Positions 7,926-50,165 are shown, counted from the first letter of the stretch. The stretch: 64,000 nt of DNA from an uncultured Sphingomonadales bacterium (GCA_937870585.1 CALMZE010000007.1:29064-93063); one strand, 5' to 3'. Notes: generated from the letters alone by a model not told the origin. Numbers and translations are program-made.

Positions 7926-7937
7926 CATTTGTGTCAA
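7922..7937. promoter_or_regulatory. Palindrome upstream of P450 (possible operator or -35)
   Basis: TTGACA-TTTG-TGTCAA perfect 6-4-6 inverted repeat. Confidence 0.35.
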
Positions 7938-7982
7938 TAGTAGCATTCTGCAACCTGATAGAGTTGGAGAGGATGATTCTGC

Positions 7983-9254: not shown

Positions 9255-9273
9255 GTTCAGTGATCCGCTGCGG

Positions 9274-9301
9274 AAAAGGCCGGGTTTTCCCGGCCTTTTT
9301 T
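9274..9301 (+). terminator. Intrinsic terminator of P450 gene
   Basis: AAAAGGCCGGG-TTTT-CCCGGCC-TTTTTT. Confidence 0.85.
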
Positions 9302-9326
9302 GTGAACGCAGCTGAACCCTCAGCGC

Positions 9327-9396
9327 AAAAAAGAGGCCGGTCGTTGCCGACCGGCCTGTATAAGTTTGATAGGAGAGGATGCCTGAAAGGCAGTTT
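9327..9396 (-). ncRNA. suhB: SuhB-like small RNA (5' end approximate)
   Basis: Minus strand: hairpin TGCCT-TTC-AGGCA, single-stranded TCCTCTCCT, terminator AGGCCGGTCG-GCAA-CGACCGGCCT followed by a T tract; divergent from a LysR gene. Confidence 0.7.
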
Positions 9397-9446
9397 CTTT
9401 TTGCGCTGCGGTGTAATGTTTCGCAAGTGCGAAATAAAAAATCACG

Positions 9447-9463
9447 ATTGCAATTTTTGCAAT
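9447..9463. promoter_or_regulatory. LysR-type binding box
   Basis: ATTGCAA-TTT-TTGCAAT perfect inverted repeat containing T-N11-A between sRNA and LysR start. Confidence 0.65.
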
Positions 9464-9506
9464 CAATTGGCAAGCAGCCATTCAGTTTGCTCAAGGAGCT
9501 TGTCCT

Positions 9507-10421
9507 ATGCGTCGCCTGCCCTCGCTGGCTGCTGTTGAAGCGTTCGTTCAGGTTGCCCGTCTCGGGTCGATCAAGGCGGCGGCAGAAGAACTGAATCTGT
9601 CTTCCCCTGCGTTGTCCCGCCGGGTGCAGGCGTTGGAACGTTTCATCGGGCGTCCGCTGTTTGAGCGGCGGCACCAGTCCATCGTGCTGAACGAAGATGG
9701 CGAGAAACTCATCCACCTCACCGCGCCGCTGCTTGATTCGCTGACGGACGCCATTGAGGCGCTGACCAGCGCCAATCCCGTGATGCGGTTGCGGCTGGGT
9801 GTGCTGCCGCTATTCGCTTCACAACGGCTGATCCCGGCGCTGCCCTCGCTCCGGGACCGCCATCCATCGCTTCATATCGATGTCGATACCGCGCCCCATG
9901 CCGTCACCCGGCTGGGCGAAGGGCTGGACGCGGCGATTGTGCTGGCGAGCGTGATCGATCCCGCGCTTCATGCAGACCGGCTGGACCAAAACAAGATTTT
10001 CCCCATTGGTGCGCGGCGACTTGTGCAGGGGCCGCACGCCGTCACCGACCCCCTTCAGATCAAGGAAATGACGGTGTTCATCCACCGCGACATGCCAGAC
10101 CTGTTTGCGGACTGGAGCCGCGCCATTGGGCTGGACGGCATCGAGCCGGCCGCCATCGACCATTTCGATTCGGGCCAGTTGATGCTGGAAGCTGCCGCAC
10201 AAGGTCTGGGCGTCGCCTTCATGCACGAAAGCCATTTGCTCGACGCGCATGACGACAGGCTGGTGCGCATGTTCGCCGAAGATGTGGACAGCCCCTATAG
10301 CTACTGGTTCGTCTGCCGCCCGCGTGCGTTGCAGATCAAGCCTGTGCGTCTGTTCCGGGACTGGCTGGTGTCGCTGGATGAGTGGGCCGCGAACGAAGCA
10401 GACCCGCACACGCCGCGATAA
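9507..10421 (+). CDS. LysR family regulator
   Basis: N-terminal HTH LGSIKAAAEELNLSSPALSRRVQALE, GcvA-like. Confidence 0.92.
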   Translation: MRRLPSLAAVEAFVQVARLGSIKAAAEELNLSSPALSRRVQALERFIGRPLFERRHQSIVLNEDGEKLIHLTAPLLDSLTDAIEALTSANPVMRLRLGVLPLFASQRLIPALPSLRDRHPSLHIDVDTAPHAVTRLGEGLDAAIVLASVIDPALHADRLDQNKIFPIGARRLVQGPHAVTDPLQIKEMTVFIHRDMPDLFADWSRAIGLDGIEPAAIDHFDSGQLMLEAAAQGLGVAFMHESHLLDAHDDRLVRMFAEDVDSPYSYWFVCRPRALQIKPVRLFRDWLVSLDEWAANEADPHTPR

Positions 10422-10603
10422 CAAGCAGCCCCATCCAAGCTGTCACGAGCATTTGCGCCAGAGGGAAGTCTGCGATCATCATGCTTCCCCTTCGCACGCC
10501 GCGCCTCACCAGCCCGTCAAGAGCCATGGTTAACGACGCGGCAGCTTGCCGCTCGGCTCAGTCGCGGGCATGATGCCAAAATAACGGGAGGGGAGGACGC
10601 TGA

Positions 10604-11206
10604 ATGGCGCGCGAAAAGTCATGGATGGCCCGGCTGATCAAAGCCGCGATCCTGGCCTGGTTCAAACGCCAGAACTGGCAGGTGGAGGGCACAGCGCCAC
10701 AGCCACGCAAATTTGTCGTCATCGCAGCACCCCACACCAGCAATTGGGATTTCATCCATTTCATCGGGGCCGCAGACGGGCTCAACCTTGATCTGTCATT
10801 CATGGGTAAAGCCAGTCTGTTCCGCTGGCCATGGGGCCGGATGATGCGCGATTTGGGCGGGATTCCGGTTGATCGGCGGCAGGCCAACAACATGGTCGAC
10901 GCCATGGTCGCAGAATTTGCAAAGCGAGACGAATTCATGCTGACCATCGCGCCCGAAGGCACGCGCGGCAAAGTCCGCCAGTGGAAATCCGGATTTTACC
11001 ACATCGCCATGGGTGCAGGCGTGCCGATGGTGTGCGGCATGATGGACTATAGGCGCAAGGTGGTGGGGCTCGGCCCGGCCATCTGGCCCACCGGCGACTA
11101 TGAGGCGGACATGGCTGAAATTGGCCGCTACTACAGCCAATGTACGCCCAAATATCCAGACAAAGGTTATTCCGGCATCCCCGGAGCAGGTCACCAGACC
11201 AGATAA
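10604..11206 (+). CDS. Lysophospholipid acyltransferase (PlsC-like)
   Basis: APHTSNWD (Hx4D) and PEGTR motifs. Confidence 0.9.
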   Translation: MAREKSWMARLIKAAILAWFKRQNWQVEGTAPQPRKFVVIAAPHTSNWDFIHFIGAADGLNLDLSFMGKASLFRWPWGRMMRDLGGIPVDRRQANNMVDAMVAEFAKRDEFMLTIAPEGTRGKVRQWKSGFYHIAMGAGVPMVCGMMDYRRKVVGLGPAIWPTGDYEADMAEIGRYYSQCTPKYPDKGYSGIPGAGHQTR

Positions 11207-31626: not shown

Positions 31627-32295
31627 ATGGCCGAATTGCCATGTCCTTCATGCGGGGCGCCAGTGCCGGTTCGCAGCGCCGCGCTGCCTTATGTCACCTG
31701 CGCCTATTGCCAGACGCTGATCCGTCGCGAGGGGGAGGCCCTGTCCGCCATCGGCAAGAGCGCGGTGCTGCCCTTTGATGTGTCGCCCATCCAGCTCGGC
31801 TCCGCTGGTCGCTTTTCTCTCATACGCTTCCGCGTGGTGGGCAGGGTCCGCTGGGGATGGAGCGACGGATCATGGAATGAATGGCTGCTCGATTGCAGCG
31901 ACGGCACGCCGCGCTGGCTGGGCGAGGCGATGGGCAGTTTCATGTTGACGGCCGAACAGCCCGATTTGCTCGAACGGCGCGAACTGGCAGGTTTTGCTGC
32001 TGGCGGTCCGCTGCACTTGAGAACCCGCCTGGCGATTGAGGGCGAAGTCTATGTCGCCTGCGACATCAAGGAGGCCAAGTGCCTGGGCAGCGAGGGCGAT
32101 CTGCCCCGCCCGACGCCTGAAGGGACACCCCTTACGAGTGTGGATTTTCGAGGAACGGCGGGGGGCTTTCTCAGCGTGCAGCGCGATGCAGAGGGTGTGA
32201 GCGCATGGCGGGGCAACGCGGTTGATCTCGCCGCGCTCAACACGGTGGATCTGCGCCAGATTGAAGGCTGGACCATCCCGGCGGCACTGCGATGA
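31627..32295 (+). CDS. DUF4178 protein with N-terminal zinc ribbon
   Basis: CPSCG...CAYC; VVGRVRW...WNEWLL. Confidence 0.75.
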   Translation: MAELPCPSCGAPVPVRSAALPYVTCAYCQTLIRREGEALSAIGKSAVLPFDVSPIQLGSAGRFSLIRFRVVGRVRWGWSDGSWNEWLLDCSDGTPRWLGEAMGSFMLTAEQPDLLERRELAGFAAGGPLHLRTRLAIEGEVYVACDIKEAKCLGSEGDLPRPTPEGTPLTSVDFRGTAGGFLSVQRDAEGVSAWRGNAVDLAALNTVDLRQIEGWTIPAALR

Positions 32296-33611
32296 GCGCG
32301 GCGCGGGCAATCACCTGCCCCCAATGCGGTGGGGCCATCGCGATCAAGGCCGCAGGCTATACGGTTTCGGTTGGCTGCCAGCATTGCGGCGCGCTGCTCG
32401 ATGTGGCGCACCCCGATGTGACGGTGATAGCCGCTTATGAAGACGCAATGCGCGGCCTGCCGGTTCCGCTCGGACGGCGCGGCACTTTGTTTGGTGACGA
32501 ATGGGAAGCGATTGGCGCGCTCAGCCGCCATGATTATGATGTTGAATGGACCGAGACGCTGCTGTTCAACCCCTATCTGGGGTATCGCTGGCTGGTGCTG
32601 AGCGAGGGCGAGTGGAGCCTTGGCACCATGATTACAGACCCTCCCCAAGGCAGTGGCGAGGATATTGAGTGGCGCGGCGAGGCTTTCCATCAGGATTATA
32701 ATCTGGCTGAAACCATCACATCGCATGTGGTGGGCGAGTTTTACTGGCGCGTTGCAGCGGGAGACACAGTGGCGGCGACCACTTACAGCCGTCGGGACAC
32801 GCTTCTTTCTGCCGAATGGAGCGGAGACGAAGGCAGCTGGACGCAGCTCGTCCCCGTCTCTGCTCAAGATGTTCGGCAGGCTTTTGGACTGTCAGGAGTG
32901 GATGTGGGTGACAGCCCCGCTCCAAGGCGCAAGGCCAGACCCTTGGGATTATCCCGTTCGGCGGGTGCAGAAGCTGGCGACAATTTCATGACTCGTTTGC
33001 GTGCGGATTATGACGCCGCCGACATCATGGAAAAATCCGATCTGCCCAAGATGTTCAAAATGGGCGTGGCGGCTTTTCTGATCTCGCTATTGATGATGAT
33101 GGGTTTCACGACATCCAGCGATACTGTGAACAATTATGGCAGAGTGAAGGTTGGCGGGCCAGAAGTGACGGTCAATGTCGGTCAGATTTCGCTCAACGCA
33201 CCCTATCAGCCTGTCGAAATCGACGCGTTCGGCACTGGTTTTGAAAATGCGTGGGTTGATATCAACTATACGCTGATCAACCGCAAGACGCAGCGCGGCT
33301 ATACCGCTTATGGCGTGATAGAACGTTATACCGGTCGCGACAGTGAAGGGCCGTGGAGCGAGGGCAGCTTCTATGCGACAACCCAATTTTCGGGCATCCC
33401 GCGTGGCACCTATGATGTCGTGGCGGACCTGAAGGCAAATCGCTGGAACGGCGGAGCAGCACTGAACACGACCCCCACATGGGATGGTTCGCAAGAATTT
33501 TCGGTCAACCTGACGGCCACATCGGGTGGATTCATGTGGGGCAATTTGTGGTTGATCGCAGCTTTGCTGCTGGGAATGCCCATCTTGATCTTCTGGATGC
33601 GCCACTCATAG
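32292..33611 (+). CDS. DUF4178 membrane protein with N-terminal zinc ribbon
   Basis: CPQCG...CQHC; WTETLLFNPYLGYRWL, VVGEFYWRV; two TMs. Confidence 0.8.
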   Translation: MSAARAITCPQCGGAIAIKAAGYTVSVGCQHCGALLDVAHPDVTVIAAYEDAMRGLPVPLGRRGTLFGDEWEAIGALSRHDYDVEWTETLLFNPYLGYRWLVLSEGEWSLGTMITDPPQGSGEDIEWRGEAFHQDYNLAETITSHVVGEFYWRVAAGDTVAATTYSRRDTLLSAEWSGDEGSWTQLVPVSAQDVRQAFGLSGVDVGDSPAPRRKARPLGLSRSAGAEAGDNFMTRLRADYDAADIMEKSDLPKMFKMGVAAFLISLLMMMGFTTSSDTVNNYGRVKVGGPEVTVNVGQISLNAPYQPVEIDAFGTGFENAWVDINYTLINRKTQRGYTAYGVIERYTGRDSEGPWSEGSFYATTQFSGIPRGTYDVVADLKANRWNGGAALNTTPTWDGSQEFSVNLTATSGGFMWGNLWLIAALLLGMPILIFWMRHS

Positions 33612-37581: not shown

Positions 37582-38556
37582 ATGAAGGCTGTCTTTGTGT
37601 GCAAGCCATCGAAAAGGATCATCGGCGTGGTTGGTGAAAATCTCAGACATTTCGGCGGACTGCCCGTAGCGGATTTTCGCGGTGAGGGGACGCCTCTCGA
37701 TTTTACCCGGACCTGCCCAAGGCTGCGCTGCGATTATGATGACGAGCAGGATCTGCGCGATCTGCTGACGCTGTTGCTCGATCAGCCCTCTCTGCCAAGC
37801 CTGACCGCGCTGGTGTTCGGCCTCTGGCTTGAAAATGGCGAAAGCTATGACGTGTCGCCGCAGCCCGTGCTCGATATGCTGGTGGCCTTCAAGTTGCGAC
37901 TGCCCGCGCTCAAGGCCCTGTTCATGGGCGATATTGTCTCCGAAGAGAATGAAATCTCGTGGATCAAGCAGGGCGATTATGCCGGCATCTGGGCTGCCTT
38001 CCCCCGGCTGGAAGAGATCATTGTGCGCGGCGGCGCTGATCTGTCTCTGGGGACGATCAACCATCAATCTCTGCGCAAACTCGCCATTCAGACGGGCGGG
38101 CTGGATCAGATGGTTGTGCGCGAGGCGCTGTCCGCCAATGCCCCGATTGAGCATTTCGAGCTCTGGCTGGGGGATGAGGGCTATGGGGCCAACACTTCGG
38201 TTGCCGATTTCGAGGCGCTGTTCGCGGGTCATCTCTTTCCCCGCCTGCACACGCTGGCGCTGCGCAATGCACAATATACTGACGCCATTGCGTCTGCCCT
38301 CGTGGCCAGCCCGCTGATTGACCGGATCAAGCGGCTTGATCTCTCCAAGGGCACGCTGACCGATGCGGGCGCGCAGGCGCTGATCTCTTCAGGCAAGCTT
38401 GGGCAGCTCGAACAGATCGATATCAGCTTCCACTATGTCTCTCCTGAGATGGTGAGCGAACTCTCCCGCCACACGCCCAAGCTGATCGCTGATGATCCTC
38501 AAACGCCAGACGATTGGGATGGCGAGACGCATTATTACGTCGCCGTGTCTGAGTGA
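37582..38556 (+). CDS. STM4015 family leucine-rich-repeat protein
   Basis: LKALFMGD...EISWI, LELWLG..YG, LDLSKGTLTDAGA, C-terminal YVAVSE. Confidence 0.8.
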   Translation: MKAVFVCKPSKRIIGVVGENLRHFGGLPVADFRGEGTPLDFTRTCPRLRCDYDDEQDLRDLLTLLLDQPSLPSLTALVFGLWLENGESYDVSPQPVLDMLVAFKLRLPALKALFMGDIVSEENEISWIKQGDYAGIWAAFPRLEEIIVRGGADLSLGTINHQSLRKLAIQTGGLDQMVVREALSANAPIEHFELWLGDEGYGANTSVADFEALFAGHLFPRLHTLALRNAQYTDAIASALVASPLIDRIKRLDLSKGTLTDAGAQALISSGKLGQLEQIDISFHYVSPEMVSELSRHTPKLIADDPQTPDDWDGETHYYVAVSE

Positions 38557-39734
38557 AGGCTGAACTGGCTTCGCATGCAGGACGCCCGGCACTCGTCATA
38601 GTGGGCGGCGGATCAGGCCATCGGGCGCAGAGCCTGACCGCTGCCTGTCTGGCCGAATTCGGGCATAGACCGCGCACACTCACATGGCGCGATGTGCTGC
38701 GCGATCCCCACCACCTCGACACTGCGCTGGAGGGCGCCGACTGGCTACGCTTCGAAACGCCCGATCAGGATGCTGACGAACTGGCCGCGCTGCACGAGGC
38801 TGGCGCGGATGAAGCGGTGCGGCTGGGCATTCATACCATGCCCGCCGACTCTAAGGCGTTGATCGCGTCAGGCGCCATCGGCTCGCCCTCACAAATGAAT
38901 CTGGGCCTGCACAAGCTGGTCGCCATGGCCTGCGCACTAGCTGACACAAAAGGCGTTACCACTTCGACGCGACCCGAGGATGTGGCGCTCGCGTTCGACA
39001 AGCGCCATGCACAGGCGCAGTTCCGGGCGGCAGGGCTGCCCGTTCCCCGATCATTGGAGGGTGTGACCGACTTCGCCTCGCTTGAGACGGCGATGGATCA
39101 GGCGCGCATCAACCGGGTGTTCGTCAAACTGCGCCATGGTGCGGCGGCGGCAGGCATGGTCGCGCTCGCCCGCCATGGCCAAAACTGGCGCAGCGCAACG
39201 ACGGCGGAGATTGGAGCAGACGGCGTGCTGCGCGCCACCCGGCGTGTGCGGACACTCAACACGCGCGCAGAGGCCGAACGGCTGATCAACACACTCGGCC
39301 CGCTCGGCCTGCACGCCGAAGCCTGGATACCCAAGATCGGCATACAGGGCCGCGCCGCCGATGTGCGCCTTGTGATGATCGGCGGCGATGTGGCGTCGGT
39401 CACGGTGCGCGCCAGTCTCCACCCCATGACCAACCTTCATCTCGGCGGCGAGCGCCTGCCACTCGACGCGCTGACGGCTGTCATTGGCGATGCGATGTGG
39501 GATGCAATCTGCGAGACTGCGCGTAAGGTCGCGCGCCTGTTTCCGCACAGTGACAATCTGGGTATTGACATCGCCATCAGTGCCGATGCGCGGCGCCATT
39601 ATGTGCTGGAAGCCAATCTGTTCGGCGATTTCGTGAAGGATGCCGGAAGCGACGCTTCGCACCTGCACGCTCTGGCGATGCGCCACATCCGGCACAAAAT
39701 CGCAGCGCGGTGCATGGACCGGCACGCGGCATGA
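38553..39734 (+). CDS. STM4014 family ATP-grasp protein
   Basis: VFVKLRHGAAAAG, DVRLV, MTNLHLGGER, GIDI, LEANLFGD. Confidence 0.8.
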   Translation: MKAELASHAGRPALVIVGGGSGHRAQSLTAACLAEFGHRPRTLTWRDVLRDPHHLDTALEGADWLRFETPDQDADELAALHEAGADEAVRLGIHTMPADSKALIASGAIGSPSQMNLGLHKLVAMACALADTKGVTTSTRPEDVALAFDKRHAQAQFRAAGLPVPRSLEGVTDFASLETAMDQARINRVFVKLRHGAAAAGMVALARHGQNWRSATTAEIGADGVLRATRRVRTLNTRAEAERLINTLGPLGLHAEAWIPKIGIQGRAADVRLVMIGGDVASVTVRASLHPMTNLHLGGERLPLDALTAVIGDAMWDAICETARKVARLFPHSDNLGIDIAISADARRHYVLEANLFGDFVKDAGSDASHLHALAMRHIRHKIAARCMDRHAA

Positions 39735-40564
39735 GTGCGCCGCCCATCAACGCTGCGGCCTGCATCGGCATACACGACATCGTGTTCATCACGCTCGATA
39801 CGCTGCGATATGACGTGGCAGTCGCGGCCCTCGAACGCGGTGAGACGCCTGCCCTTGCCGCCTTGCTGCCCGGCGGCGCCTGGCAATGCCGCCACAGCCC
39901 GGCCAGCTTCACCTATGCCGCCCATCACGCGTTCTTCGCCGGATTTCTGCCAACCCCGGCGGCACCAGGGATCGGTCACACCCGCCTGTTCGCAGCACGC
40001 TTTCCTGGCAGTGAGACCACCGGCCCGGGCACGGCGGTGTTTGATACGCCAGACATTGTTTCTGGCCTTGCTGCGCATGGCTATCATTCGATCTGCATCG
40101 GCGGGACCGGATTTTTCAACAAACAGTCCCCGCTTGGATCGGTTCTGCCCAGCCTGTTTGCAGAAAGCTGGTGGTCGCCCGAACTGGGCGTGGCCGACCT
40201 TCATTCGCCCGCCAACCAGATCAACCTCGCCGTGGAGCGCATTGCAGCCTGCGCGCCTGAGCAGCGCCTGTTTCTGTTCATCAACATATCGGCCTGCCAC
40301 CCACCGCACGCCCTGTATCTGGAGGGAGCAGTGCAGGACAGCGCAGCAAGCCAGCGCGCAGCACTGGCGGCGGTAGACGCGCAACTGCCCCGCCTGTTCA
40401 CCACATTGCGCCGCCGCGCGCCGCTGCTGGCGATCCTGTGTTCAGACCATGGCACAGCCTTTGGCGAAGGCGGCCATCATGGCCACCGCATCGGCCATCC
40501 CACGGTTTGGACGGTGCCCTATGCCGAACTGACGCTGCCCGCGCTGGAAGGAGCGGCCCCGTGA
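39731..40564 (+). CDS. STM4013 family hydrolase (alkaline phosphatase/sulfatase superfamily)
   Basis: ITLDTLRYD, SPASFTYAAH, FLFINISACH, SDHGT. Confidence 0.8.
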   Translation: MSAPPINAAACIGIHDIVFITLDTLRYDVAVAALERGETPALAALLPGGAWQCRHSPASFTYAAHHAFFAGFLPTPAAPGIGHTRLFAARFPGSETTGPGTAVFDTPDIVSGLAAHGYHSICIGGTGFFNKQSPLGSVLPSLFAESWWSPELGVADLHSPANQINLAVERIAACAPEQRLFLFINISACHPPHALYLEGAVQDSAASQRAALAAVDAQLPRLFTTLRRRAPLLAILCSDHGTAFGEGGHHGHRIGHPTVWTVPYAELTLPALEGAAP

Positions 40565-41877
40565 CCGACCTGTCCGAACTGGGGCCGCTCTATCAGGATT
40601 ATGCCTATGGCTATCCGCACAAGAGCGCCTACCGCGCGTTCGCGCCCAGATTGAGGCTGGCCGATCTCTGGCGCGATGAGCGCAAGGACCGACTGTTCCT
40701 TTATGTGCACCTGCCCTTTTGCGACATGCGCTGCGGTTTCTGCAACCTGTTCACCACAGCCAATCCCGCCCGAGAGGTGCAAACCGCCTATCTCGCCGCG
40801 CTCGAACGCGAAATGGAGGCCGTGCGGGATGCAATCGGCGCGATCCAGCCCGTCCAGATGGCACTGGGCGGCGGGACGCCAACGCTGCTGTCCCCTTCTG
40901 ACCTTGCTCGGCTGCTGGATGCTCTGGCCCGGAACTTCAGCGCAAACCCTGCCCGCATGCCCGCAGGAATCGAAACATCCCCCAGCACTGCCACGCCAGA
41001 CCGCATCGCCCTGCTGTCCGAACGCGGGTTCGAACGCATCAGCATCGGCGTGCAATCGTTCAACGAAGCCGAAGCGCGCGCCATGGGGCGTCCGCAGGAC
41101 ACAGCGGAGGTGATGCAGGCGCTGGACACAATCCGCAGCCACGCGTTTCGCCGCCTCAACATCGATCTCATCTATGGGGCGGCTGAGCAAACGGTTGCTT
41201 CCTGGCTCGCCTCCTTGCAGCAGGCCCTGCGCTGGCAGCCCGAAGAGCTGTTCCTTTATCCGCTTTATATACGCGCGCGCACCGGGCTCGATGGCCGCTC
41301 CTCGGTGGAGGACGAACATCGTCGCACGCTCTATCGCGCAGGGCGGGATTATCTGGTGGCGCAGGGCTATCGGCAGATTTCGATGCGCGCCTTCCACCGG
41401 GCGGACACCAGCGAAACGGATAGCCCCCACGAATTCAGCTGCCAGGAAGATGGTGTGATCGGGCTGGGCACGGGCGCGCGCTCCTATACGGCCAAGGCGC
41501 ATTATTCCTCTCGCTATGCCGTCGCACGCGCCGGGGTGTTGGGCATCATCACCGACTATTGCGGCAAGACGCAGGACGATTTCAGGTTTGCAGATCATGG
41601 CATGACCATTGACCGCGACGACGCGATGCGTCGCTTCATCCTCAAATCGATCTTGCGCGTAGACGGGCTGGATCTGGCGCGTTTCAGAGCAGTTTTCGGC
41701 ATCGATGCGCGCGACGCCTTTCCGTCGCTGACCCGCCTATGCGATCTAGGCTTGCTGGCAAAGGAGGCGGAGCAGTTGCGCCCGACCGCCGATGGGCTGG
41801 AACATTCGGACGCAATTCCGCCACTTTTCTACTCCCCACGCGTTCGAGCCGCGATGCAATGCGGAGACGTGCTGTGA
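40561..41877 (+). CDS. STM4012 family radical SAM protein (HemN-like)
   Basis: YAYGYPHKSAYR, LYVHLPFCDMRCGFCN (CxxxCxxC), GGGTPT; GTG start overlapping upstream stop. Confidence 0.88.
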   Translation: MTDLSELGPLYQDYAYGYPHKSAYRAFAPRLRLADLWRDERKDRLFLYVHLPFCDMRCGFCNLFTTANPAREVQTAYLAALEREMEAVRDAIGAIQPVQMALGGGTPTLLSPSDLARLLDALARNFSANPARMPAGIETSPSTATPDRIALLSERGFERISIGVQSFNEAEARAMGRPQDTAEVMQALDTIRSHAFRRLNIDLIYGAAEQTVASWLASLQQALRWQPEELFLYPLYIRARTGLDGRSSVEDEHRRTLYRAGRDYLVAQGYRQISMRAFHRADTSETDSPHEFSCQEDGVIGLGTGARSYTAKAHYSSRYAVARAGVLGIITDYCGKTQDDFRFADHGMTIDRDDAMRRFILKSILRVDGLDLARFRAVFGIDARDAFPSLTRLCDLGLLAKEAEQLRPTADGLEHSDAIPPLFYSPRVRAAMQCGDVL

Positions 41878-42782
41878 GCGCGTCGCCCCTGACAATCCTG
41901 TGGCGCGGTCCGCTATCTGGCTGCAACTTCGATTGCGGCTATTGCCCCTTTGCCAAGCGCAAGGACAGCCGAGCGGTGCTGGCGCGCGACGCCAAAGCGC
42001 TCAACCGCTTCGTCGAATGGGTGCTGGCGCGCGACGGGCCGACATCTGTGCTGTTTACGCCCTGGGGCGAAGCGCTGATCCGCAAGCATTACCGGCAGGC
42101 TCTCATCCGTCTCTCGCACGCGCCGCATGTCGACCGGGTGGCGATCCAGACCAATTTGTCTGGCCCCGTGGAGTGGCTGAACGCCTGCGCACCCGCCAAA
42201 ATCGGCATCTGGGCAACATGGCATCCCGACCAGATCCCGATGGCGCGCTTTCTGGCGCGCATCGCCCGTCTCGACGCGCTGGGCATCGCCTATAGTGTAG
42301 GCGCGGTCGGCGTGCGTGCGCATGTCGAACAGATTGAGGCGTTGCGGGCCGCTTTGCCGACCCACGCCTATCTTTGGATCAATGCCGAAGAGTCGCTGCA
42401 AGGCCGATACAGTCCTGCCGAAATCGAGCGGTGGGCGGCAATTGATCCATGGTTCGAACTCAACAACCGTGCTTATGTCAGCCTTGGCCGCGCCTGCGTG
42501 ACGGGGCAGGGCGTCATTTCCGTGAATGGTGAAGGCGATGCGCGGCGTTGCCATTTCGTGGACGCTCAAATCGGCAATATTTACGAGCCCGGCTTTGAAG
42601 CCCGGCTCGCACCATCCCCTTGCCCGCTCTCGCAGTGCAACTGCCATATTGGCTATAGCCACCTCGATGATCTGGCGCTGCCCGGCCTGTTCGGGGCCGG
42701 CTTTCTCGAACGGCGCGCGCATGATCCAGAGCGCGCGGCGGCGCTTCTCGCCATGGCGCGGTTTGACAGCGGCGCGCTATAG
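41874..42782 (+). CDS. STM4011 family radical SAM protein
   Basis: WRGPLSGCNFDCGYCPFAK; C-terminal CHF...CPLSQCNCHIG; GTG start. Confidence 0.85.
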   Translation: MSASPLTILWRGPLSGCNFDCGYCPFAKRKDSRAVLARDAKALNRFVEWVLARDGPTSVLFTPWGEALIRKHYRQALIRLSHAPHVDRVAIQTNLSGPVEWLNACAPAKIGIWATWHPDQIPMARFLARIARLDALGIAYSVGAVGVRAHVEQIEALRAALPTHAYLWINAEESLQGRYSPAEIERWAAIDPWFELNNRAYVSLGRACVTGQGVISVNGEGDARRCHFVDAQIGNIYEPGFEARLAPSPCPLSQCNCHIGYSHLDDLALPGLFGAGFLERRAHDPERAAALLAMARFDSGAL

Positions 42783-42788
42783 CCGCGA

Positions 42789-43481
42789 TCAGCGCGCGCG
42801 TTCTTCCATCACGGCCCGCACCTTGGGGTTGGCTTCCTTTGCAATGTCCGCCGGAGTGATCGATTGCGGATCAAACGCAATCTGGCGTGAAACCGGCACA
42901 CCGTTCCAGCGCACACCCACCGGATCATATAGTTCGGGAAGTTCCTGAATCCCGCTGCCTGCCACATCAATCCAGGATGTGACCACCAGCCCCGGCGGCA
43001 AGTCCGCAATGCCGCTGCAACCGGACAGGTCCAGCACGGCCACTTCGCCGAGATTTTCGGGAAGCGCCTTCAGCGACCCGCAGCCAGACAGGTTCAACCT
43101 GCCGCCCCGCATGTTCAGATCGTCCGGCAAGGCGGTCAGCGCGGTGCAGCCCGACAGATCGAGGAACGCCACATCCATCCCGGCTGGCAGGCGCGTCAGG
43201 CCTGTGCAGCGGGCAAGAGACAGCGATCCGGTGTGAATGCCATCCGGCAAGTCACGCAGTTGCGCACAATCAGAGAGATTGACCGCAATATCGGCCGCAG
43301 CCGGAATCTCCGCTTTCGCAAACGCGCTGCCTTGCGCATTCATCATGCGCTTTCCGGCGGGCGTATTGCGCGGCGGCGGGGGTCCGGGGGTGCGGCGCGC
43401 TGTTTGCGCTGCCGAAGCAGGGGCAGCGGCGGGTGAACCGCTGCCGCCGAAAAACCGGGCAATGGTCTTGAAGATGGACAT
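42789..43481 (-). CDS. Leucine-rich-repeat protein
   Basis: About five LxLxxCxxLxxLP repeats; ends IAFDPQSIT...EANPKVRAVMEERAR. Confidence 0.8.
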   Translation of the reverse strand: MSIFKTIARFFGGSGSPAAAPASAAQTARRTPGPPPPRNTPAGKRMMNAQGSAFAKAEIPAAADIAVNLSDCAQLRDLPDGIHTGSLSLARCTGLTRLPAGMDVAFLDLSGCTALTALPDDLNMRGGRLNLSGCGSLKALPENLGEVAVLDLSGCSGIADLPPGLVVTSWIDVAGSGIQELPELYDPVGVRWNGVPVSRQIAFDPQSITPADIAKEANPKVRAVMEERAR

Positions 43482-43511
43482 GGCTTCTCCTTCGTCTGCG
43501 CCGAGCGGCAT

Positions 43512-46500
43512 TCAAAACTGGGTAACGCGGGCGAGATGCGGGTCAACAAGGAATAGGCGGCCAAATTGGTCAGCCAACAATACCGTGCCACTTGAGGCCG
43601 TGCGTGCGTGGGCTCTCGCCGGGACGCGCGCGAGCGGTATCAACTGGGTTTCCGCATGATGATGGAGTGAAAATTCCCGTTTGTCTTGCCCATCAGTTCG
43701 GATCACCGTCACCAACTTCCCGTCAACGGGGACGTTCGGATCGGGCGCGATCAAGACAGGCCGCCCGAAATCGCAGGGCATGAACTGGTCAAACACGCCC
43801 GCCTCAGCGCGCGGTTGCATCAGTTTGCGCGCGCGGGCCTCTCCGTCTTCGCTCCACAGCGAATAGGCCATGATGATGGTCTGGTCAGACAAGGCGCTAA
43901 ACGTCCGGCCCACCGTTTGGCTCCCCCAGGCCCAGGTGACTGTGGGAAGCAGCTCACCCGCGTCCGCAGGCTGCCCCTGCCGATAGCCATGGCAGATTGC
44001 TGTGGTGAGATGCCCACGCTCCTGCAAGCGCCACCATTCGGTCACGCCCTGCCGATCAGGCGAGACATCGATGGTGATCCAGGACGACGCATCCTCTTCA
44101 TGCAGAAAGGCAATAGCGCGCAGACGATCCGTGAGGGCGCACGACCAGAGAAACACAACGCGCGGCATGGCAGCGCACAGGGCAGCCAGATCGAGCGCGC
44201 CAATCTCGCTTCCCACTTGCACCAGCCAAGCCAGTTCGGATGTGACATCATGATGCGCGAGCAGGTTGACACGCCCGACCGGATGGAGCGAACGGCGCGC
44301 GGTATCGAAGCGCGTGATGCGTGTCAGTCCGTCCTTTTCGCGTTGCAGGATCAGGGCATGGGCACCACCGCCCACCGCCACCAACGCAGACACGTCACTC
44401 ATCGCCTGCCGCCAGATCACAAGACCATTGGCATCGATCAACTCAAGCTGCTGATTGTCTCGCCACGCCAAAATCAGGCCTGTGCCAAGGACGCAAGCCG
44501 CCAAGACCGGTGACGAGGTGACGAGCGGCTCGGGCACGAGCCAGTGACGCCGGGCAGGCGGCGCGGCGCGAAAGAGTTTGCGCAATGCGCCGAGATCACG
44601 GGCCAGCACCTTATGCCCGCTCTCTTGCAGCAAATGGACCAACTGATCCACATCCTGCGGGTTCAATTGGGCCGAAGCCTGACGCAGCACAGTGTTGGCC
44701 AGCCCTTCGAGCAGGGCAGACCCGGCCCCGTCCCAGAAGCCCATTTGCTCATCCGACCGGCGCGCTGCCAGACGGCGCATCGCGGCGAGCAGAGCAAGCA
44801 GGGCTTCTCCCTCTCCCTCGCGCAACATCAGGCTGCGCAAGTCCGCCAGTGCATCAGCGAGCAGCGGATCACCAACATGGGGCAGCGTGCGCGGAAATCC
44901 GGCAAGCTGGGCTGAATCGCCCGGCGCATGGCACAAGAGCGTGCGCGCCAGCGGTTCGGGCGCGAAGTTCCCCGGCTCAATTGACTTCATAGTCTCTTCT
45001 AGCCAGCCCCGGCGCAGATCGAGCAAGGCGCGGTCCACTCCAGCCTGACGCGCCAGATCATCGGTTACCTGCAAGGCCCGCAGCGGCTGACCGGATGCAA
45101 CCAGCGTGTCGGTCCAGCCTCTCAGCACAAAAGCATGATATTCGGCATCACCATTCCGGCTTTGCGCGGCCAGTTGCTCAAAACAGCCGGACCGATGCGC
45201 CAGCGCCAGCGCAGCCTCCTGCTTGCCAGCCGTATAGAGCAGCCGGATGGTCAGCACCGGATCGACTTTCGCCCCCAATGCCAGCCGAATGGCCTCTTCC
45301 ATCATGTCACCGCGTTCCAGCAATCGGACGGCGGCATCATTCTGTGCCAGAAGCTGCGAACGGATATAGGCCGCGCGCTTCATATCGCCTTCGGATTCGA
45401 GCTGTGTGGCCAGATCCTCATAAGTCTGGCGCATCTGCCAGCTCAGGTTCTCCGGCAGGACGGGCACTTCAAACGCGTCGCCTCCCAGATCGAAATCGAG
45501 TCGTGCCCGCGCAGCCGGAAGCTGACGGGGATAGCGGCGCGGGAGTTTGCGCGCCCCCTGCCCCCCACCCAACCGGATGGCCAGCCGCAAGGCATCGTCA
45601 ATCATGCCGCGCGCAGCCAGTGCCTTCACCTGCTGCGCCCGCGCCTCCAACTGCCTTGTGAGCGATCCGAACGGGTTCTTCCACGCCAGCCAGCCCAGCA
45701 GATTGTCGAGCAGGCCGGGCGTGCTCGGCTGGTGCGCAGCAGTTTCAGCCTTATCCTCTGCGCCCGCCAGTAGCCCGCGCACGAAACGGGTGAGGACGAA
45801 GACCAACACCATCAGCGAGATCGGTGCGCTCCGCGAGATAGCGGATAGGAGCAGAAGGAGACCGGCAGCATAGAGCACGAAGCGCAGCAGCCTGCCCATC
45901 GCAGGCAGAAGCCCGAGACCACCGCGCGCCCAGCCGACGAAGGAGCGGCGGCGACCCAAACTCTCCTTCAGATCCGAAAACGGGTCTGCCCGGCGACTGG
46001 GGACCAGTTCGACAAGGCTTGCACTTGCCTCTGCCTTAACCGGCACCAGCACCGCGCTGGGCGCGGCCGATTGGCGAGCCTCAACCCGGTCAGCATGACG
46101 CGCGACAGACTCTGGCCGCACGCCGGGATGCAGCATCACCTGCGGCATGTCCCATAAGAGCGAGAGCGGAAGCCTCTCCAGCACGTCCAGCGCAATGCGC
46201 TTCGCCCCTCCCCCCCACCAGATATCGACCGCGCGGACCGCACCGCCCAGCACAGGCGCGTCAACCGCGCGCCGCGCCGCATGGCTGGCGAGCGTCCCCG
46301 GCGCGCTCGCGACCAGCGGCAGAGCGGCGGGATGGTCAAGCCCGTGCGCCTTGGGTGGGCCATCGAACAGGATCACCAGCAGTTCACGTTGATGTGCGTC
46401 CGATCCGATCAAGCCCCGCCGCATCTCGCGCACTTGATCGCGCAGCCGGGCGAGCGGCGGCAGGCTGCCACCCGGCGGACGGATGAATGCCAGCGCCTGA

Positions 46501-46589
46501 CAGGGCTGATCAGAGGGGAAAACGGCAACCTCTGGCAGGGCGCGCGGTAAAGTCTCACGCGCGCGGATGGCGGCCTGACTGTGCCGCAT
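43512..46589 (-). CDS. bpX6-like large protein of MoxR-vWA-beta-propeller system
   Basis: TM segment, DDALRLAIRLG...TYEDL...RAAYI...LLER helical repeats, beta-rich C-terminus; TGATG coupling. Confidence 0.65.
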   Translation of the reverse strand: MRHSQAAIRARETLPRALPEVAVFPSDQPCQALAFIRPPGGSLPPLARLRDQVREMRRGLIGSDAHQRELLVILFDGPPKAHGLDHPAALPLVASAPGTLASHAARRAVDAPVLGGAVRAVDIWWGGGAKRIALDVLERLPLSLLWDMPQVMLHPGVRPESVARHADRVEARQSAAPSAVLVPVKAEASASLVELVPSRRADPFSDLKESLGRRRSFVGWARGGLGLLPAMGRLLRFVLYAAGLLLLLSAISRSAPISLMVLVFVLTRFVRGLLAGAEDKAETAAHQPSTPGLLDNLLGWLAWKNPFGSLTRQLEARAQQVKALAARGMIDDALRLAIRLGGGQGARKLPRRYPRQLPAARARLDFDLGGDAFEVPVLPENLSWQMRQTYEDLATQLESEGDMKRAAYIRSQLLAQNDAAVRLLERGDMMEEAIRLALGAKVDPVLTIRLLYTAGKQEAALALAHRSGCFEQLAAQSRNGDAEYHAFVLRGWTDTLVASGQPLRALQVTDDLARQAGVDRALLDLRRGWLEETMKSIEPGNFAPEPLARTLLCHAPGDSAQLAGFPRTLPHVGDPLLADALADLRSLMLREGEGEALLALLAAMRRLAARRSDEQMGFWDGAGSALLEGLANTVLRQASAQLNPQDVDQLVHLLQESGHKVLARDLGALRKLFRAAPPARRHWLVPEPLVTSSPVLAACVLGTGLILAWRDNQQLELIDANGLVIWRQAMSDVSALVAVGGGAHALILQREKDGLTRITRFDTARRSLHPVGRVNLLAHHDVTSELAWLVQVGSEIGALDLAALCAAMPRVVFLWSCALTDRLRAIAFLHEEDASSWITIDVSPDRQGVTEWWRLQERGHLTTAICHGYRQGQPADAGELLPTVTWAWGSQTVGRTFSALSDQTIIMAYSLWSEDGEARARKLMQPRAEAGVFDQFMPCDFGRPVLIAPDPNVPVDGKLVTVIRTDGQDKREFSLHHHAETQLIPLARVPARAHARTASSGTVLLADQFGRLFLVDPHLARVTQF

Positions 46590-48547
46590 CACATGTCCTC
46601 CGTGCAGCGGAGTTGCGCTGCACTGTTGCAAAGTTCTTCCAGCGAGAGGCGCTCTGTGTGCGATGTTCCGTGAGCGGGCTTGAAATTGTAGCGGAGCAGA
46701 TCTTGCGGCACGCCCTGCCTGTCACAGGCGACTGCCCAGAATACGCCATTGATGCGCAGGAGCGCGGCAATCCGACCTGCATCCGCGCCCAGATCCAGCG
46801 TCGCCTTATCTCGCGTTCGCCGCCCGCCAGAAAAGCGGCAGGATTCGATCACGCCCTCCCCGCCGAGCGCCGCATCAGACCAGATCTGCGCCTGCACACC
46901 ATTATTCTTGGCCACTGCATCGATGACACGCTCGACCGGCTCCACCTGAAATTGAAGCGCAGATGGCGACAGCGGGTGGTTGTAATGGCTATCGCTTTGC
47001 AGAACCGACCATTGGCCCGGCTGAATGGCGCAGGCCAGCGCGTTCTTTTCTGCGGCCCAGGCTATCCCGTGGAACGTCTTTGGCAATCTGGTACAATCGG
47101 GCAGGTAGTAGCTCGCCGATTCTCCTTCATTGCGCTTGATCACCTGCATGAACGCATGGCCACTTTGCATATAGCCCGCGATCTGGTCTGCCCCGGTGGA
47201 CAGCAAGATGCGGCGCGCTGAATATTTCGCTGAAAAGCGCCACGTCCAGCGATCAATGGCCTGCAGCACATAAGTCTGGCCGGAAGTTGAGTAAAATTCG
47301 ACGTCTCTCACACTATTCATACTGGGCAGTGCATAAGGGGAGCGGTTGTCGAACAGATGCTGGCTCGGCACGGCGTAGGACAGGATGGATGGTGCGTCGT
47401 GATTCTGGCCAGGCTTCAACTCAAACCGAAAATAGACAAGCCGCTGCTCGCCCTGCTGGACCTGATGATAGAGCACAAAAAGTTGATCATGGCGTACGGC
47501 AATCCCCGCCAGCAAGATGTCCGCTGGCAAGGGCAAGAACCAGTGCGCCTGCTGGGCACCGGCGGCGTTCACCTTCAGGATAAGCAGCCCGTACGCCACG
47601 CGCACCGCGCGATAATTCCCCGCCGGAGCAGACAGATAAAGCGGTTCCCATCCCGGCATTCCTGCGACGCTGTGGCTCTCCTGCCCCCCATCCCGCACGC
47701 GGACAGGGGCGGGAAAGGGCTTCTCCAGTGCGGACAGGCATTTTGCATCTGGCGCGAGTTCGATCCGCGCTGAATGGAGGCTGTGGCCGCCGCGCCTGAC
47801 GGTCAGCCGGGCCTCACGCGGCGTATCCCGCATTGGCGGCTGGAGGATGAAAGACAAAGCGTTGCGCTGCCTTGTGATCGCCGGAGCTTCGCCGCCCCAA
47901 TCGCGGGCAGACCCGATCACCCAATCCGCGACCTCTGGGCTCTTTGGCCGCGGTCTTTCCCCCGTGGCTTCGGCCCAGACCGCGCGCGCGTCTGCCAGAT
48001 CCTCATCATGGACTTCGCGAAACGCCCCAGACCGCAGGAAGCGCTTGATGCTGTTGACCGAAATATCGGTGAACCAGACAGCGCCCTCCGCCCGCGGCAG
48101 GAAGCACCAGTGAAACGCCGCACCCCGTTTTGCTGCCACGCGCGCCAGAAAGAACAGCGCCGCGAGCGCCACCAATCGGCCATGGCCCAATATATCCGGC
48201 CCTGCTGACAACACGACGCGCCACACAGGCCGCGTGCCGGGATCCGCATAGATGCGATCATGATAGAGTGTTTCAGATTCGGCCAGCCGCCGCAGAAATT
48301 CAAGTGGGGCCTCGGTCCGCAGCAGCAGCTCGCTTTGCAGGATATGATCAATCTCACCATGCAGCGTCAGGCCGCCCAAACCTTCAAATTCGCCTTGTTC
48401 GGCAAACTCCCGCTGCTCCAGCCCGCGTGCGAGCGGTTCGAACTGGATCAGTTGGCCGCACAGCACATCGGCCAGCGGGCGGGACAGCAGCGCGAGCACG
48501 GGCAGAAAGGGCGCATAGGCCGGAGGGAGCGAATCGGGCGCGCTCAT
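46589..48547 (-). CDS. Degenerate vWA-like MoxR partner with beta-rich C-terminus
   Basis: GEFEGLGGL...SELLL..E.PLEFLRR..ESE.LY pre-vWA motif; VLSAGPDILG where MIDAS DxSxS is expected. Confidence 0.6.
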   Translation of the reverse strand: MSAPDSLPPAYAPFLPVLALLSRPLADVLCGQLIQFEPLARGLEQREFAEQGEFEGLGGLTLHGEIDHILQSELLLRTEAPLEFLRRLAESETLYHDRIYADPGTRPVWRVVLSAGPDILGHGRLVALAALFFLARVAAKRGAAFHWCFLPRAEGAVWFTDISVNSIKRFLRSGAFREVHDEDLADARAVWAEATGERPRPKSPEVADWVIGSARDWGGEAPAITRQRNALSFILQPPMRDTPREARLTVRRGGHSLHSARIELAPDAKCLSALEKPFPAPVRVRDGGQESHSVAGMPGWEPLYLSAPAGNYRAVRVAYGLLILKVNAAGAQQAHWFLPLPADILLAGIAVRHDQLFVLYHQVQQGEQRLVYFRFELKPGQNHDAPSILSYAVPSQHLFDNRSPYALPSMNSVRDVEFYSTSGQTYVLQAIDRWTWRFSAKYSARRILLSTGADQIAGYMQSGHAFMQVIKRNEGESASYYLPDCTRLPKTFHGIAWAAEKNALACAIQPGQWSVLQSDSHYNHPLSPSALQFQVEPVERVIDAVAKNNGVQAQIWSDAALGGEGVIESCRFSGGRRTRDKATLDLGADAGRIAALLRINGVFWAVACDRQGVPQDLLRYNFKPAHGTSHTERLSLEELCNSAAQLRCTEDM

Positions 48548-48966
48548 ACGGAAACCGGGTCTCGGAGATGGACAGGATAAGCATCGACATCGCAGCTGAA
48601 CGATCTGGAGCCAAAGCGCGGCACGATGATTACGGGCGGAGCCCAGCCCGCATGGCGCGCAAAATCTTTCAGCAATTCGGCCTGCGCGGAATCGGGCACA
48701 TCAAGCGCGCTGCCAACCGGAAACCACCATCCGCTTTGCGCCTGATAGAGCGGAATCGCCCCTGCGATACGCGGCAGGACGGGCTGATCCTCTCCCTGCA
48801 AGGGACGACCGAACAGCGCAGCCCAATCTACGCCGACTGCAAAGGGCAGGCTGCGTGCGAAAGCCGGCTTGGCAAGCAGCGCTGCATCCAGCCTTGCGGA
48901 AGCCTCATCACCGATCAGCAGCAGGGCATCGACCGCCTGCACCGGATCAACCCGGCGCCAGTGCAT
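48544..48966 (-). CDS. bpX5-like small protein
   Basis: MHWRRVD...LP..AGAIPLY...WW.PVG..LDVP; coupled to MoxR gene. Confidence 0.55.
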   Translation of the reverse strand: MHWRRVDPVQAVDALLLIGDEASARLDAALLAKPAFARSLPFAVGVDWAALFGRPLQGEDQPVLPRIAGAIPLYQAQSGWWFPVGSALDVPDSAQAELLKDFARHAGWAPPVIIVPRFGSRSFSCDVDAYPVHLRDPVSV

Positions 48967-50165
48967 CAGGCGTCCGCACCCAAGGCGGACTGTCCCGCCG
49001 CACCTGTCCCCTTGTGTCCGGCGGCAAGGACAGCCTCGATGCTGGTGTGGAGCGCCCGCACATCCTGCGGCATGGCATCCGGCGAGAACGCAGCCTCGAT
49101 CCGCGTCAGCATCGTCTCCAGCCGGACCAGCCAATGTTCAAACAGACGATCCGTCTCCAAAGCGGGGCGCGCCTGCAACAGCTGAGCGGCCTGCTCCGCC
49201 AGCAAGGCGGCATGGGCAGCCAGCCCATGCGTCGCCTGCGCCACGCTGCTCGTCAGAACGGGATTACGGCTCTGCTCCAGTTCGACATGGAGCAGATCGC
49301 GCACCTCCTGCTGTCGCTCGCGCGACTGGACAAGATAGGTGACCGGCCAGAGATCCTCCGCGCCCGCCTTCATGTTGCCACGCAGCAGAGCCGCCGCCGC
49401 AATCAGCTTGAGCCCCTTGACCAGCTTGCGGTCTGAAATCGGCACGCCGGTCAGGCGGATTTTGCGGACGATATGCGCATAGTCCTCCCTTACGCCTCCA
49501 ACATCAACAGTGAGGATCGCCGCCTGAAGCCGCGCCAGCACCGACCGGTCGAGCGGCGGAACCGGCGCGTTGCCCGCCAGCGTTTCACGCCACCCGGCAT
49601 CGAGCAGCGCAGGAAGCTGATCCTCCCCAACCGGATCAACGAACATCGTCACCAGAAACCGATCAGCAAACGCCGCCAATGCAGCGTCTTCGGGCAATTC
49701 GTTCGATGCTGCGATGCAGGAGATCAGCGGCACCTGCGTCTGGAACTGGCCCCGCCGATAGGTGCGCTCGTTGAGGATTTTGAGCAGCGAGTTGAGAATG
49801 GCGGTCGAACCCAGAAAAATTTCATCGAGAAAGGCGACCTCGGCTTCGGGCAACATCCCGCTCGTTACCGGTCGCACCTCGCCGTCGCGTAACGCCGCCA
49901 GATCGAGCGCACCGAACAACTCGCCCGGCTCTGTGAAGCGTCCGATCAGATATTCGAAGGATCGCGCATCCACGGCCCGCGCCATGGCCTGCACCGCCGC
50001 CGATTTGCCGGTCCCCGGCGGGCCGATCAGCAACACATGTTCGCGCGTCAGCAAACCCAGCATGACCAGCTCAAGCAGCGCGCGCCGCGATACGAATTGC
50101 CCCGCCAATGCATCAAGATGCGCATTAACCTGTTCAATTGCGCCCGAAATTTCACCTTGATCCAT
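48966..50165 (-). CDS. MoxR/RavA family AAA+ ATPase
   Basis: REHVLLIGPPGTGKS, YLIGRFTEPGELFG, FLDEIF, ILNERTY, ASNELP, DRF. Confidence 0.92.
   Translation of the reverse strand: MDQGEISGAIEQVNAHLDALAGQFVSRRALLELVMLGLLTREHVLLIGPPGTGKSAAVQAMARAVDARSFEYLIGRFTEPGELFGALDLAALRDGEVRPVTSGMLPEAEVAFLDEIFLGSTAILNSLLKILNERTYRRGQFQTQVPLISCIAASNELPEDAALAAFADRFLVTMFVDPVGEDQLPALLDAGWRETLAGNAPVPPLDRSVLARLQAAILTVDVGGVREDYAHIVRKIRLTGVPISDRKLVKGLKLIAAAALLRGNMKAGAEDLWPVTYLVQSRERQQEVRDLLHVELEQSRNPVLTSSVAQATHGLAAHAALLAEQAAQLLQARPALETDRLFEHWLVRLETMLTRIEAAFSPDAMPQDVRALHTSIEAVLAAGHKGTGAAGQSALGADA

Follow-up and report, generated by a model that had tools for sequence, protein, structure and literature searches.

An STM4011–4015 cassette whose leucine-rich repeat protein ends in an invariant glutamate: a candidate system for protein C-terminal tail modification

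A 64,000-nucleotide stretch of DNA from an uncultured Sphingomonadales bacterium (GCA_937870585.1 CALMZE010000007.1:29064-93063; hereafter the window, with positions counted from its first letter) contains an intact copy of the STM4011–4015 cassette, a widespread and catalogued set of five bacterial genes. These encode a leucine-rich repeat (LRR) protein (STM4015), an ATP-grasp ligase (STM4014), an alkaline-phosphatase-superfamily enzyme (STM4013) and two radical S-adenosylmethionine (SAM) enzymes (STM4012 and STM4011). STM4015 is the sole non-enzyme of the cassette, and its C-terminal residue is a nearly invariant Glu. We propose, at about an even chance, that the cassette modifies the C-terminal tail of a protein, and that this protein is its own STM4015.

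The window carries an intact and widespread five-gene cassette

Families were assigned with NCBIfam models at their curated cut-offs, and all five proteins scored above these (Table 1). This hidden Markov model (HMM) check confirmed the five families named in an earlier reading of the window that was made from its sequence alone (hereafter the sequence-only reading). Pfam detected only generic domains in the cassette, namely an ATP-grasp domain below its cut-off, a Sulfatase domain barely above it, Radical_SAM together with HemN_C, and Radical_SAM alone; it detected no domain in STM4015. The genes are all adjacent in the order 4015-4014-4013-4012-4011, and each of the four junctions is a 4-nucleotide (nt) overlap, GTGA or ATGA, as the sequence-only reading had described. 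The motifs that it had quoted, RHSPASFT, PFCDMRCGFC and CNFDCGYC with the C-terminal cysteines, were likewise found in the translations. Its start for STM4015, the ATG at 37582, was corrected: since the public gene call is 309 amino acids (aa) long, the GTG codon present at 37627 is more likely to be the start. All residues that are invariant in the families are present in the window proteins and the catalytic motifs are intact; because the invariant residues are retained, the copy looks functional as far as its sequence indicates. The locus is a complete and unremarkable example of the catalogued cassette.

Eighty related loci were collected through an alignment of STM4013, and a neighbourhood of 10 kb around the cassette was examined. 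The loci come from more than eight phyla, and cover Planctomycetota, Chloroflexota, Myxococcota, Cyanobacteria, Acidobacteriota, Actinomycetota and Alpha-, Beta- and Gammaproteobacteria. All five genes were present in 57 of the 80 loci, with the order of the window as the commonest arrangement, and such recurrence in the same order in many phyla is far beyond chance. The STM4013-4012-4011 trio was found in 70 of the 80 loci, and an STM4015 gene lay directly upstream of STM4014 in 52 of 68. This linkage pattern indicates that the cassette consists of two linked modules, one of the LRR protein and the ligase, the other of the phosphodiesterase and the two radical SAM enzymes. Long open reading frames (ORFs) suggestive of gene fusions between cassette members were judged from their coordinates to be mere upstream extensions in other frames of GC-rich DNA, and fusions were rejected.

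The families range over Proteobacteria (including Salmonella), Cyanobacteria, Myxococcota, Planctomycetota, Chloroflexota, Acidobacteriota, Actinomycetota, Deinococcus, Paenibacillus (Bacillota) and Bacteroides, with more than 5,500 STM4013 clusters at 90% identity among the 8,000 candidates that were scored and about 1,600 STM4015 clusters at 50% identity (E < 1e-30). STM4013 is unusually conserved, its identity between phyla being 65-70%. In the closest relative of the window locus, L081, it is 78% identical to the window protein. The STM4011-STM4015 genes of Salmonella enterica have the same order, match the same five models and encode an STM4015 protein with the same terminal Glu and the same spacing from the DDxDG motif. 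The Salmonella cassette is nevertheless a divergent outlier branch, with an STM4013 protein just 36% identical to that of the window, whereas 60-70% is found between most phyla and 55-70% is typical for proteins of different phyla. It has a sixth, overlapping gene for a Cof-type HAD protein and is located between ompL and this HAD gene, which is followed by typA, whereas the window has no HAD gene and carries a convergent truncated LRR gene instead.

Because of the 4-nt overlaps, the window cassette has no intergenic space in which a separate gene for the precursor of a ribosomally synthesized and post-translationally modified peptide could lie. Among the locus ORFs of at least 60 aa, none is conserved except a roughly 100-aa partner of an LRR-DUF6745 protein described below; a separate precursor gene was rejected on these grounds. 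A known anti-phage defence system was also rejected, because the PADLOC models gave no match for the cassette: STM4012 had only weak generic radical SAM matches and the other proteins had none.

STM4015 proteins share a C-terminal tail that ends in Glu

The most informative feature of the locus, and one that is new relative to the sequence-only reading, is the terminal Glu tail of STM4015. The window protein ends in ...DDWDGETHYYVAVSE and the Salmonella protein in ...DDYDGDIYMNAMYTE (longer stretch, PDDYDGDIYMNAMYTE), with the same spacing in both. Glu was the last residue in 117 of 120 STM4015 homologues from databases, in 146 of 148 representatives at 50% identity and in 120 of the 133 ORFs that clustered with STM4015 in the 80 loci, against a background of 5% for the other ORFs of the same loci. 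Among the locus exceptions, at least nine have WD40-like C-termini and were apparently misclustered, and the two exceptional representatives are short sequences whose match breaks off short of the profile's end. The tail usually reads [R/Y]-Y-x-[A/S]-V-x-E-COOH and follows a conserved, acidic DD[W/Y]DG[E/D] hairpin. This tail is kept in paralogues with an N-terminal WGR domain in myxobacteria and planctomycetes and in paralogues with HEAT repeats in cyanobacteria. In cyanobacteria up to six STM4015 paralogues, all of them tailed, accompany a single enzyme set, which fits several substrates with one common recognition tag. Given this tail, a substrate that is a protein is more likely than a route through free small molecules, and STM4015 is predicted to be the protein on which the cassette acts, as substrate or as carrier.

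The AlphaFold2 (AF2) model of STM4015 had a predicted local distance difference test (pLDDT) score of 94.5. Its top match, by both fold and HMM, was PDB 2RA8, followed by LRRs of the ribonuclease-inhibitor and NLR types, so that the designation as an LRR protein in the sequence-only reading held by fold. PDB 2RA8 (Bacteroides fragilis Q64V53) is a true member of the STM4015 family (HMM E 3e-70, Foldseek E 2e-18, 29% identity); it was deposited by structural genomics as an uncharacterised protein and supplies a fold, but no function.

Some STM4015-like LRR proteins of Gemmata, Fimbriiglobus and Polyangiaceae have a variant tail, [Y/F]-L-x-x-G-D-x-E, in which Glu is still the last residue; their genes are located after STM4011 and not before the ligase gene (Table 1). 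In Nostocales loci (L049, L050, L058, L063, L064 and others), HEAT-type STM4015 paralogues are interspersed with WD40 proteins, and a trio of Hsp70-like, DUF2997 and coiled-coil genes lies nearby. In a metagenome-assembled genome (MAG) of Obscuribacterales, STM4011 is directly followed by a gene for a fusion of an ATP-dependent DNA ligase with WGR domains; the WGR domain is also N-terminal in many STM4015 paralogues. In a single case, a Blastocatellia MAG, a gene of the leucine carboxyl methyltransferase family (PF04072) is convergent to the trio. Some members of PF04072 methylate C-terminal carboxylates of proteins.

The best matches of STM4014 are ligases that act on a C-terminal Glu

The invariant ATP-grasp residues are present in STM4014. 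With its AF2 model (pLDDT 92) as the query, the top Foldseek matches were ArgX-LysW (3vpb), LysX/ArgX-LysW (5k2m) and LysX (3vpd), with E values of about 2e-12 and target template modelling scores of about 0.72-0.75; next came D-Ala-D-Ala ligases (Ddl; 4.5e-11), the peptide macrocyclase MdnC and RimK-RpsF. A profile search of the PDB gave LysX (1uc8 and 3vpd) first and then RimK. LysX and ArgX are its nearest neighbours by fold and by profile; however, STM4014 scored only 19.3 bits against the LysX model, far under the cut-off of 275.6, and Ddl enzymes match its fold nearly as well. Each of LysX, ArgX and RimK has a specific protein as its substrate and acts at the C-terminal Glu.

The LysW/LysX-ArgX system of Thermus, Sulfolobus and Thermococcus (3vpb, 3vpd, 5k2m) resembles the cassette in pairing an ATP-grasp ligase with a protein that ends in Glu. 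By analogy with it, STM4015 might act as a carrier: its terminal Glu would bind a substrate amino acid by the amino group, the radical SAM enzymes and the phosphodiesterase would remodel the bound amino acid, and the product would be set free. Both the terminal Glu of the STM4015 family and the top matches of STM4014, which are structures of LysX/ArgX solved with LysW, are in line with such a carrier. The C-terminal EDWGE of LysW also resembles the acidic DDWDGE of STM4015, a likeness that serves as a lead only. LysW, however, is a small zinc-ribbon carrier of roughly 54 aa that ends in EDWGE, whereas STM4015, the partner of the ligase here, is an LRR protein of 309 aa and resembles LysW just in the terminal Glu and the internal DDWDGE. 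With their 300-600 aa, their frequent fusion to WGR or HEAT domains and their up to six copies, the STM4015 proteins do not look like a dedicated small carrier. The enzymes that follow in the LysW system are a kinase, a reductase, an aminotransferase and a peptidase, in contrast to the two radical SAM enzymes and the phosphodiesterase of the cassette, and no genes of the LysZ, LysY, LysJ or LysK type, nor any other releasing amidase or peptidase, are conserved with the cassette in the 80 loci. We consider a LysW-type carrier route quite unlikely.

RimK and ribosomal protein S6 (4iwx, 5zct, 5zk6) are another comparable pair, in which an ATP-grasp enzyme extends one particular folded protein at its C-terminal Glu. 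RimK differs in its substrate protein and in working alone, without radical SAM partners, and STM4014, at 393 aa, carries an N-terminal region of roughly 100 residues that RimK and LysX (about 280-300 aa) lack.

STM4013 is a probable Thr-nucleophile phosphodiesterase and its two partners are radical SAM enzymes

The top profile match of STM4013 in the PDB was the nucleotide pyrophosphatase/phosphodiesterase (NPP) of Xanthomonas (2gsn). Residues D23, D239, H240 and T61 are invariant in STM4013, as is the motif H-S-P-x-S-F-T, whose SFT aligns with the LTF motif of NPP so that the Thr nucleophile of NPP falls on T61. Judged from this alignment and the invariant residues, STM4013 is probably a Thr-nucleophile phosphodiesterase or phosphotransferase with Thr61 as the nucleophile, and not a formylglycine sulfatase. 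The C/S-x-P-x-R motif of formylglycine sulfatases was not found in STM4013; a sulfatase fold lacking CxPxR, with SPASFT in its place, had been noted in the sequence-only reading, and the SPASFT region corresponds to the invariant motif. A Ser-type sulfatase matured by a radical SAM enzyme, following the logic of anSME and suggested by the sulfatase fold beside a SPASM-like enzyme, was rejected as well, because position 56 is Ser or Thr, S-x-P-x-R is absent and the NPP Thr lies on T61.

STM4012 contains the motifs CDMRCGFC and GGGTP and a HemN_C domain. Its PDB matches were HemN (1olt, E 4e-30) and the class C methyltransferase NocN (2e-19), with which it has in common the radical SAM core, YxHxPFC...CxxC, GGGTP and HemN_C. 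Its scores lay below all equivalog cut-offs, for HemN (150 against 325), HemW (141.5 against 205.4), ChuW (140.3 against 400) and HemZ (116 against 321), and it also differs from HemN in having no haem-pathway context. Because of these scores STM4012 is not a true HemN, HemW or ChuW; the description as HemN-like in the sequence-only reading is upheld, and no assignment to a haem enzyme that would have contradicted it was obtained.

In STM4011, C17, C21 and C24 are invariant together with C208, C226, C250, C255 and C257, and the C-terminal part carries a hairpin motif, C..G.SVISVDGDG..RRCHF...GNIY, that is typical of SPASM/twitch domains. The best PDB matches of STM4011, anSME (4k37) and SkfB, were weak (E 0.05-0.5). 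Both anSME and SkfB modify proteins or peptides.

Evidence for a possible small-molecule product

Alternatively, the four enzymes could produce or change a metabolite that is not bound to protein, possibly one derived from a nucleotide or sugar phosphate, with STM4015 serving as a scaffold, regulator or sensor and its end forming a structural cap. Several observations that weigh against tail modification bear on this pathway. HAD phosphatases of differing subfamilies are attached to the trio in at least nine loci of separate lineages (Table 1), and their repeated attachment suggests that the route involves a phosphorylated small molecule at some point; the NPP-type phosphodiesterase STM4013 would also suit such a pathway. 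The trio is strongly conserved (65%, 47% and 50% identity for STM4013, STM4012 and STM4011, against 40% for the LRR protein and 30% for the ligase) and sometimes stands alone, with no ligase or LRR gene nearby, as in L054, L057, L007, L011, L030 and L039. In the loci that lack STM4014, no PDZ protein was found to take the place of the ligase. The last nine residues of STM4015 have an AF2 pLDDT of about 89 and are predicted to be ordered, so that the motif may cap the structure instead of serving as a free tail for modification. The fold scores of Ddl for STM4014 are near those of LysX and ArgX, which means that the fold alone is no proof of a protein substrate, and the sequence-profile matches of STM4014 to LysX and RimK are weak, with E values of about 2e-3. 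Finally, Pfam detects no SPASM domain in STM4011.

A free metabolite would, however, leave unexplained the exact Glu end in about 97% of the STM4015 family, multi-domain paralogues included, as well as the position of the LRR gene directly before the ligase gene and the SPASM-like domain of STM4011, which is typical of peptide-modifying enzymes. The 80 loci also show no transporter or exporter gene conserved beside the cassette, which counts against it. We regard the small-molecule pathway as rather unlikely.

The upstream polyamine genes form a separate unit

Upstream of the cassette the window encodes an SPFH protein, two DUF4178 proteins, a membrane SpeE protein, a flavin amine oxidase and SpeD. 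The sequence-only reading had put forward the SpeD/SpeE product as the amine substrate, in which case STM4014 would ligate spermidine or another product of these enzymes. The evidence for this route is local: the SpeD gene ends at 37552 on the same strand, 29-74 nt before STM4015, and no terminator-like site lies between them, so that read-through transcription from SpeD is possible. As to co-transcription, the sequence was found in metagenome DNA runs only and in no RNA runs. When the related loci were searched with the six upstream proteins, homologues of SpeD, SpeE, the amine oxidase, DUF4178 and SPFH were found within 10 kb of the cassette in none of the 80. L081 has no SpeD, SpeE or amine oxidase and carries a gene for a LysR regulator upstream of its cassette, and the Salmonella cassette has no SpeD or SpeE beside it, ompL being there. 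The adjacency of SpeD and STM4015 is local and recent and is in itself no evidence of a shared pathway, and the polyamine module is a separate conserved unit. The polyamine link was rejected after these searches, and we hold ligation of a SpeE/SpeD product to be very improbable.

The second DUF4178 protein matched the Pfam model of the LysW-type zinc ribbon below threshold (19.6 bits, cut-off 27; E 7e-4); the match probably reflects no more than a zinc ribbon of a generic kind.

Genes neighbouring the cassette

An accessory LRR gene, convergent with STM4011, was found directly after the cassette (Table 1); its likelier start is the Met at about 43481. The protein is a C-terminally truncated relative of an LRR protein that carries DUF6745 at full length: it aligns solely to residues 65-230 of 316, and the DUF6745 core is missing. 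Homologues adjoin the cassette in 16 of the 80 loci, in several phyla, and are a recurrent sixth partner. In L081 the equivalent truncated gene (66% identity) occupies the corresponding position and no MoxR system accompanies it, which indicates that the accessory LRR gene belongs with the cassette. The full-length LRR-DUF6745 protein has a partner of roughly 100 aa, phrog_27831-like, with invariant RxGDV, GExTGHxH and HxEH motifs and a terminal Asp, and the two recur beside the cassette in 16-18 loci; the window and L081 have the truncated LRR part only, without this partner.

Beyond the accessory gene, the window contains the genes of a 'ternary system' of MoxR (bpMoxR) with divergent vWA (ivWA). 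In about 7 of the 80 loci, from four phyla (L005, L010, L017, L023, L034, L037 and L046), MoxR/vWA genes lie no more than 10 kb from the cassette. The description of MoxR-vWA systems by Kaur et al. 2020 (PMC7159879) mentions an unspecified radical SAM effector, and contains no ATP-grasp or LRR cassette.

Table 1 Coordinates of the cassette in the window and of associated features in the window and in related loci.
Feature	Location	Coordinates	Strand	Remarks
STM4015-family LRR protein	window	37627..38556 (longest ORF from ATG 37582)	+	NF038076, 285 bits (cut-off 275)
Conserved C-terminal tail of STM4015, PDDWDGETHYYVAVSE	window	38506..38553	+	last residue invariant Glu; stop codon overlaps STM4014 start
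STM4014 ATP-grasp ligase, LysX/ArgX/RimK type	window	38553..39734	+	NF038074, 249 bits (cut-off 175)
STM4013 alkaline-phosphatase-superfamily, NPP-like enzyme	window	39731..40564	+	NF038075, 381 bits (cut-off 250)
STM4012 HemN-like radical SAM enzyme	window	40561..41877	+	NF006067, 546 bits (cut-off 380)
STM4011 radical SAM enzyme with C-terminal SPASM/twitch-like Cys domain	window	41874..42782	+	NF038073, 369 bits (cut-off 200)
Accessory LRR gene	window	42789..43511	-	convergent with STM4011
MoxR (bpMoxR) and divergent vWA (ivWA) genes	window	43512-50165	-	'ternary system'
Second DUF4178 protein	window	32292-33611	+	sub-threshold zinc-ribbon match
Truncated LRR gene	L081	13109-13687		same position as in the window
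LRR-DUF6745 gene (example)	L008	13089-14381		adjoins the cassette
Type IA (YjjG-like) HAD	L004	5012-5737		before STM4013; also in L017, L023, L025, L026, L034 and L080 (seven loci)
Further HAD gene	L030	5042-5542
Cof-type IIB HAD	L083 (Salmonella)	9877-10611		overlaps STM4011
Variant-tail LRR gene	L044	13065-14213
Variant-tail LRR gene	L062	4979-6490
Variant-tail LRR gene	L076	13038-15713
Variant-tail LRR gene	L077	13156-14589
ATP-dependent DNA ligase fused to WGR domains	L039 (Obscuribacterales MAG)	7740-9935
Leucine carboxyl methyltransferase family (PF04072) gene	L007 (Blastocatellia MAG)	7345-8253	-

Discussion

STM4015 as the substrate of the cassette is the simplest reading that fits the invariant Glu, the pairing of the LRR gene with the ligase gene, the kinship of the ligase with LysX and RimK, a radical SAM enzyme of the peptide type and the absence of a precursor gene. 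In the proposed mechanism, STM4014 would convert a carboxylate of this terminal Glu into an acyl phosphate and couple it to an amine, which might be an amino acid or a small molecule. The STM4013-4012-4011 trio, often together with a HAD phosphatase, would then act on the tail itself or on the attached group. The sequence-only reading had arrived at amide ligation plus radical modification, which is a reasonable outline once the amine from SpeD/SpeE, enzymes with no homologue near the cassette in the 80 loci, is set aside.

A combination of the two kinds of route would accommodate both the evidence from the tail and the evidence for a small molecule, and we put it forward tentatively, as possible. 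The trio would make or trim a phosphorylated adduct, and the LysX-like ligase would place this adduct on the terminal Glu of STM4015. The two radical SAM enzymes and the NPP-type phosphodiesterase might build the adduct from a nucleotide or sugar phosphate, for example, and the cassette would then represent a broad and unrecognised class of C-terminal chemistry. The modified tail might switch or arm the LRR protein, possibly in systems of the conflict or immunity type; the LRR proteins, often fused to WGR or HEAT domains that are sensor-like, and multiplied in multicellular bacteria, could be placed in such a scheme. An immunity-type role is hinted at by the MoxR-vWA neighbours, the LRR-DUF6745 partner and the phyletic weight towards cyanobacteria, myxobacteria, actinobacteria and planctomycetes.

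A literature search found no functional study of the STM4011–4015 families, in agreement with the statement of the sequence-only reading that they have no assigned reaction: the families are named, one member has a solved structure, and in Salmonella papers the genes appear as incidental table entries only. The family is very large and extends across many phyla, yet the literature searched gives no function for it. If modification of the STM4015 tail is correct, the cassette would be a new variant of ATP-grasp chemistry at a protein C-terminus, and would add a further kind of enzymatic C-terminus modification to a short list that has RimK/S6, the tubulin ligases, LysW and Pup among its entries. 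A substrate would at the same time be assigned to two orphan radical SAM families.

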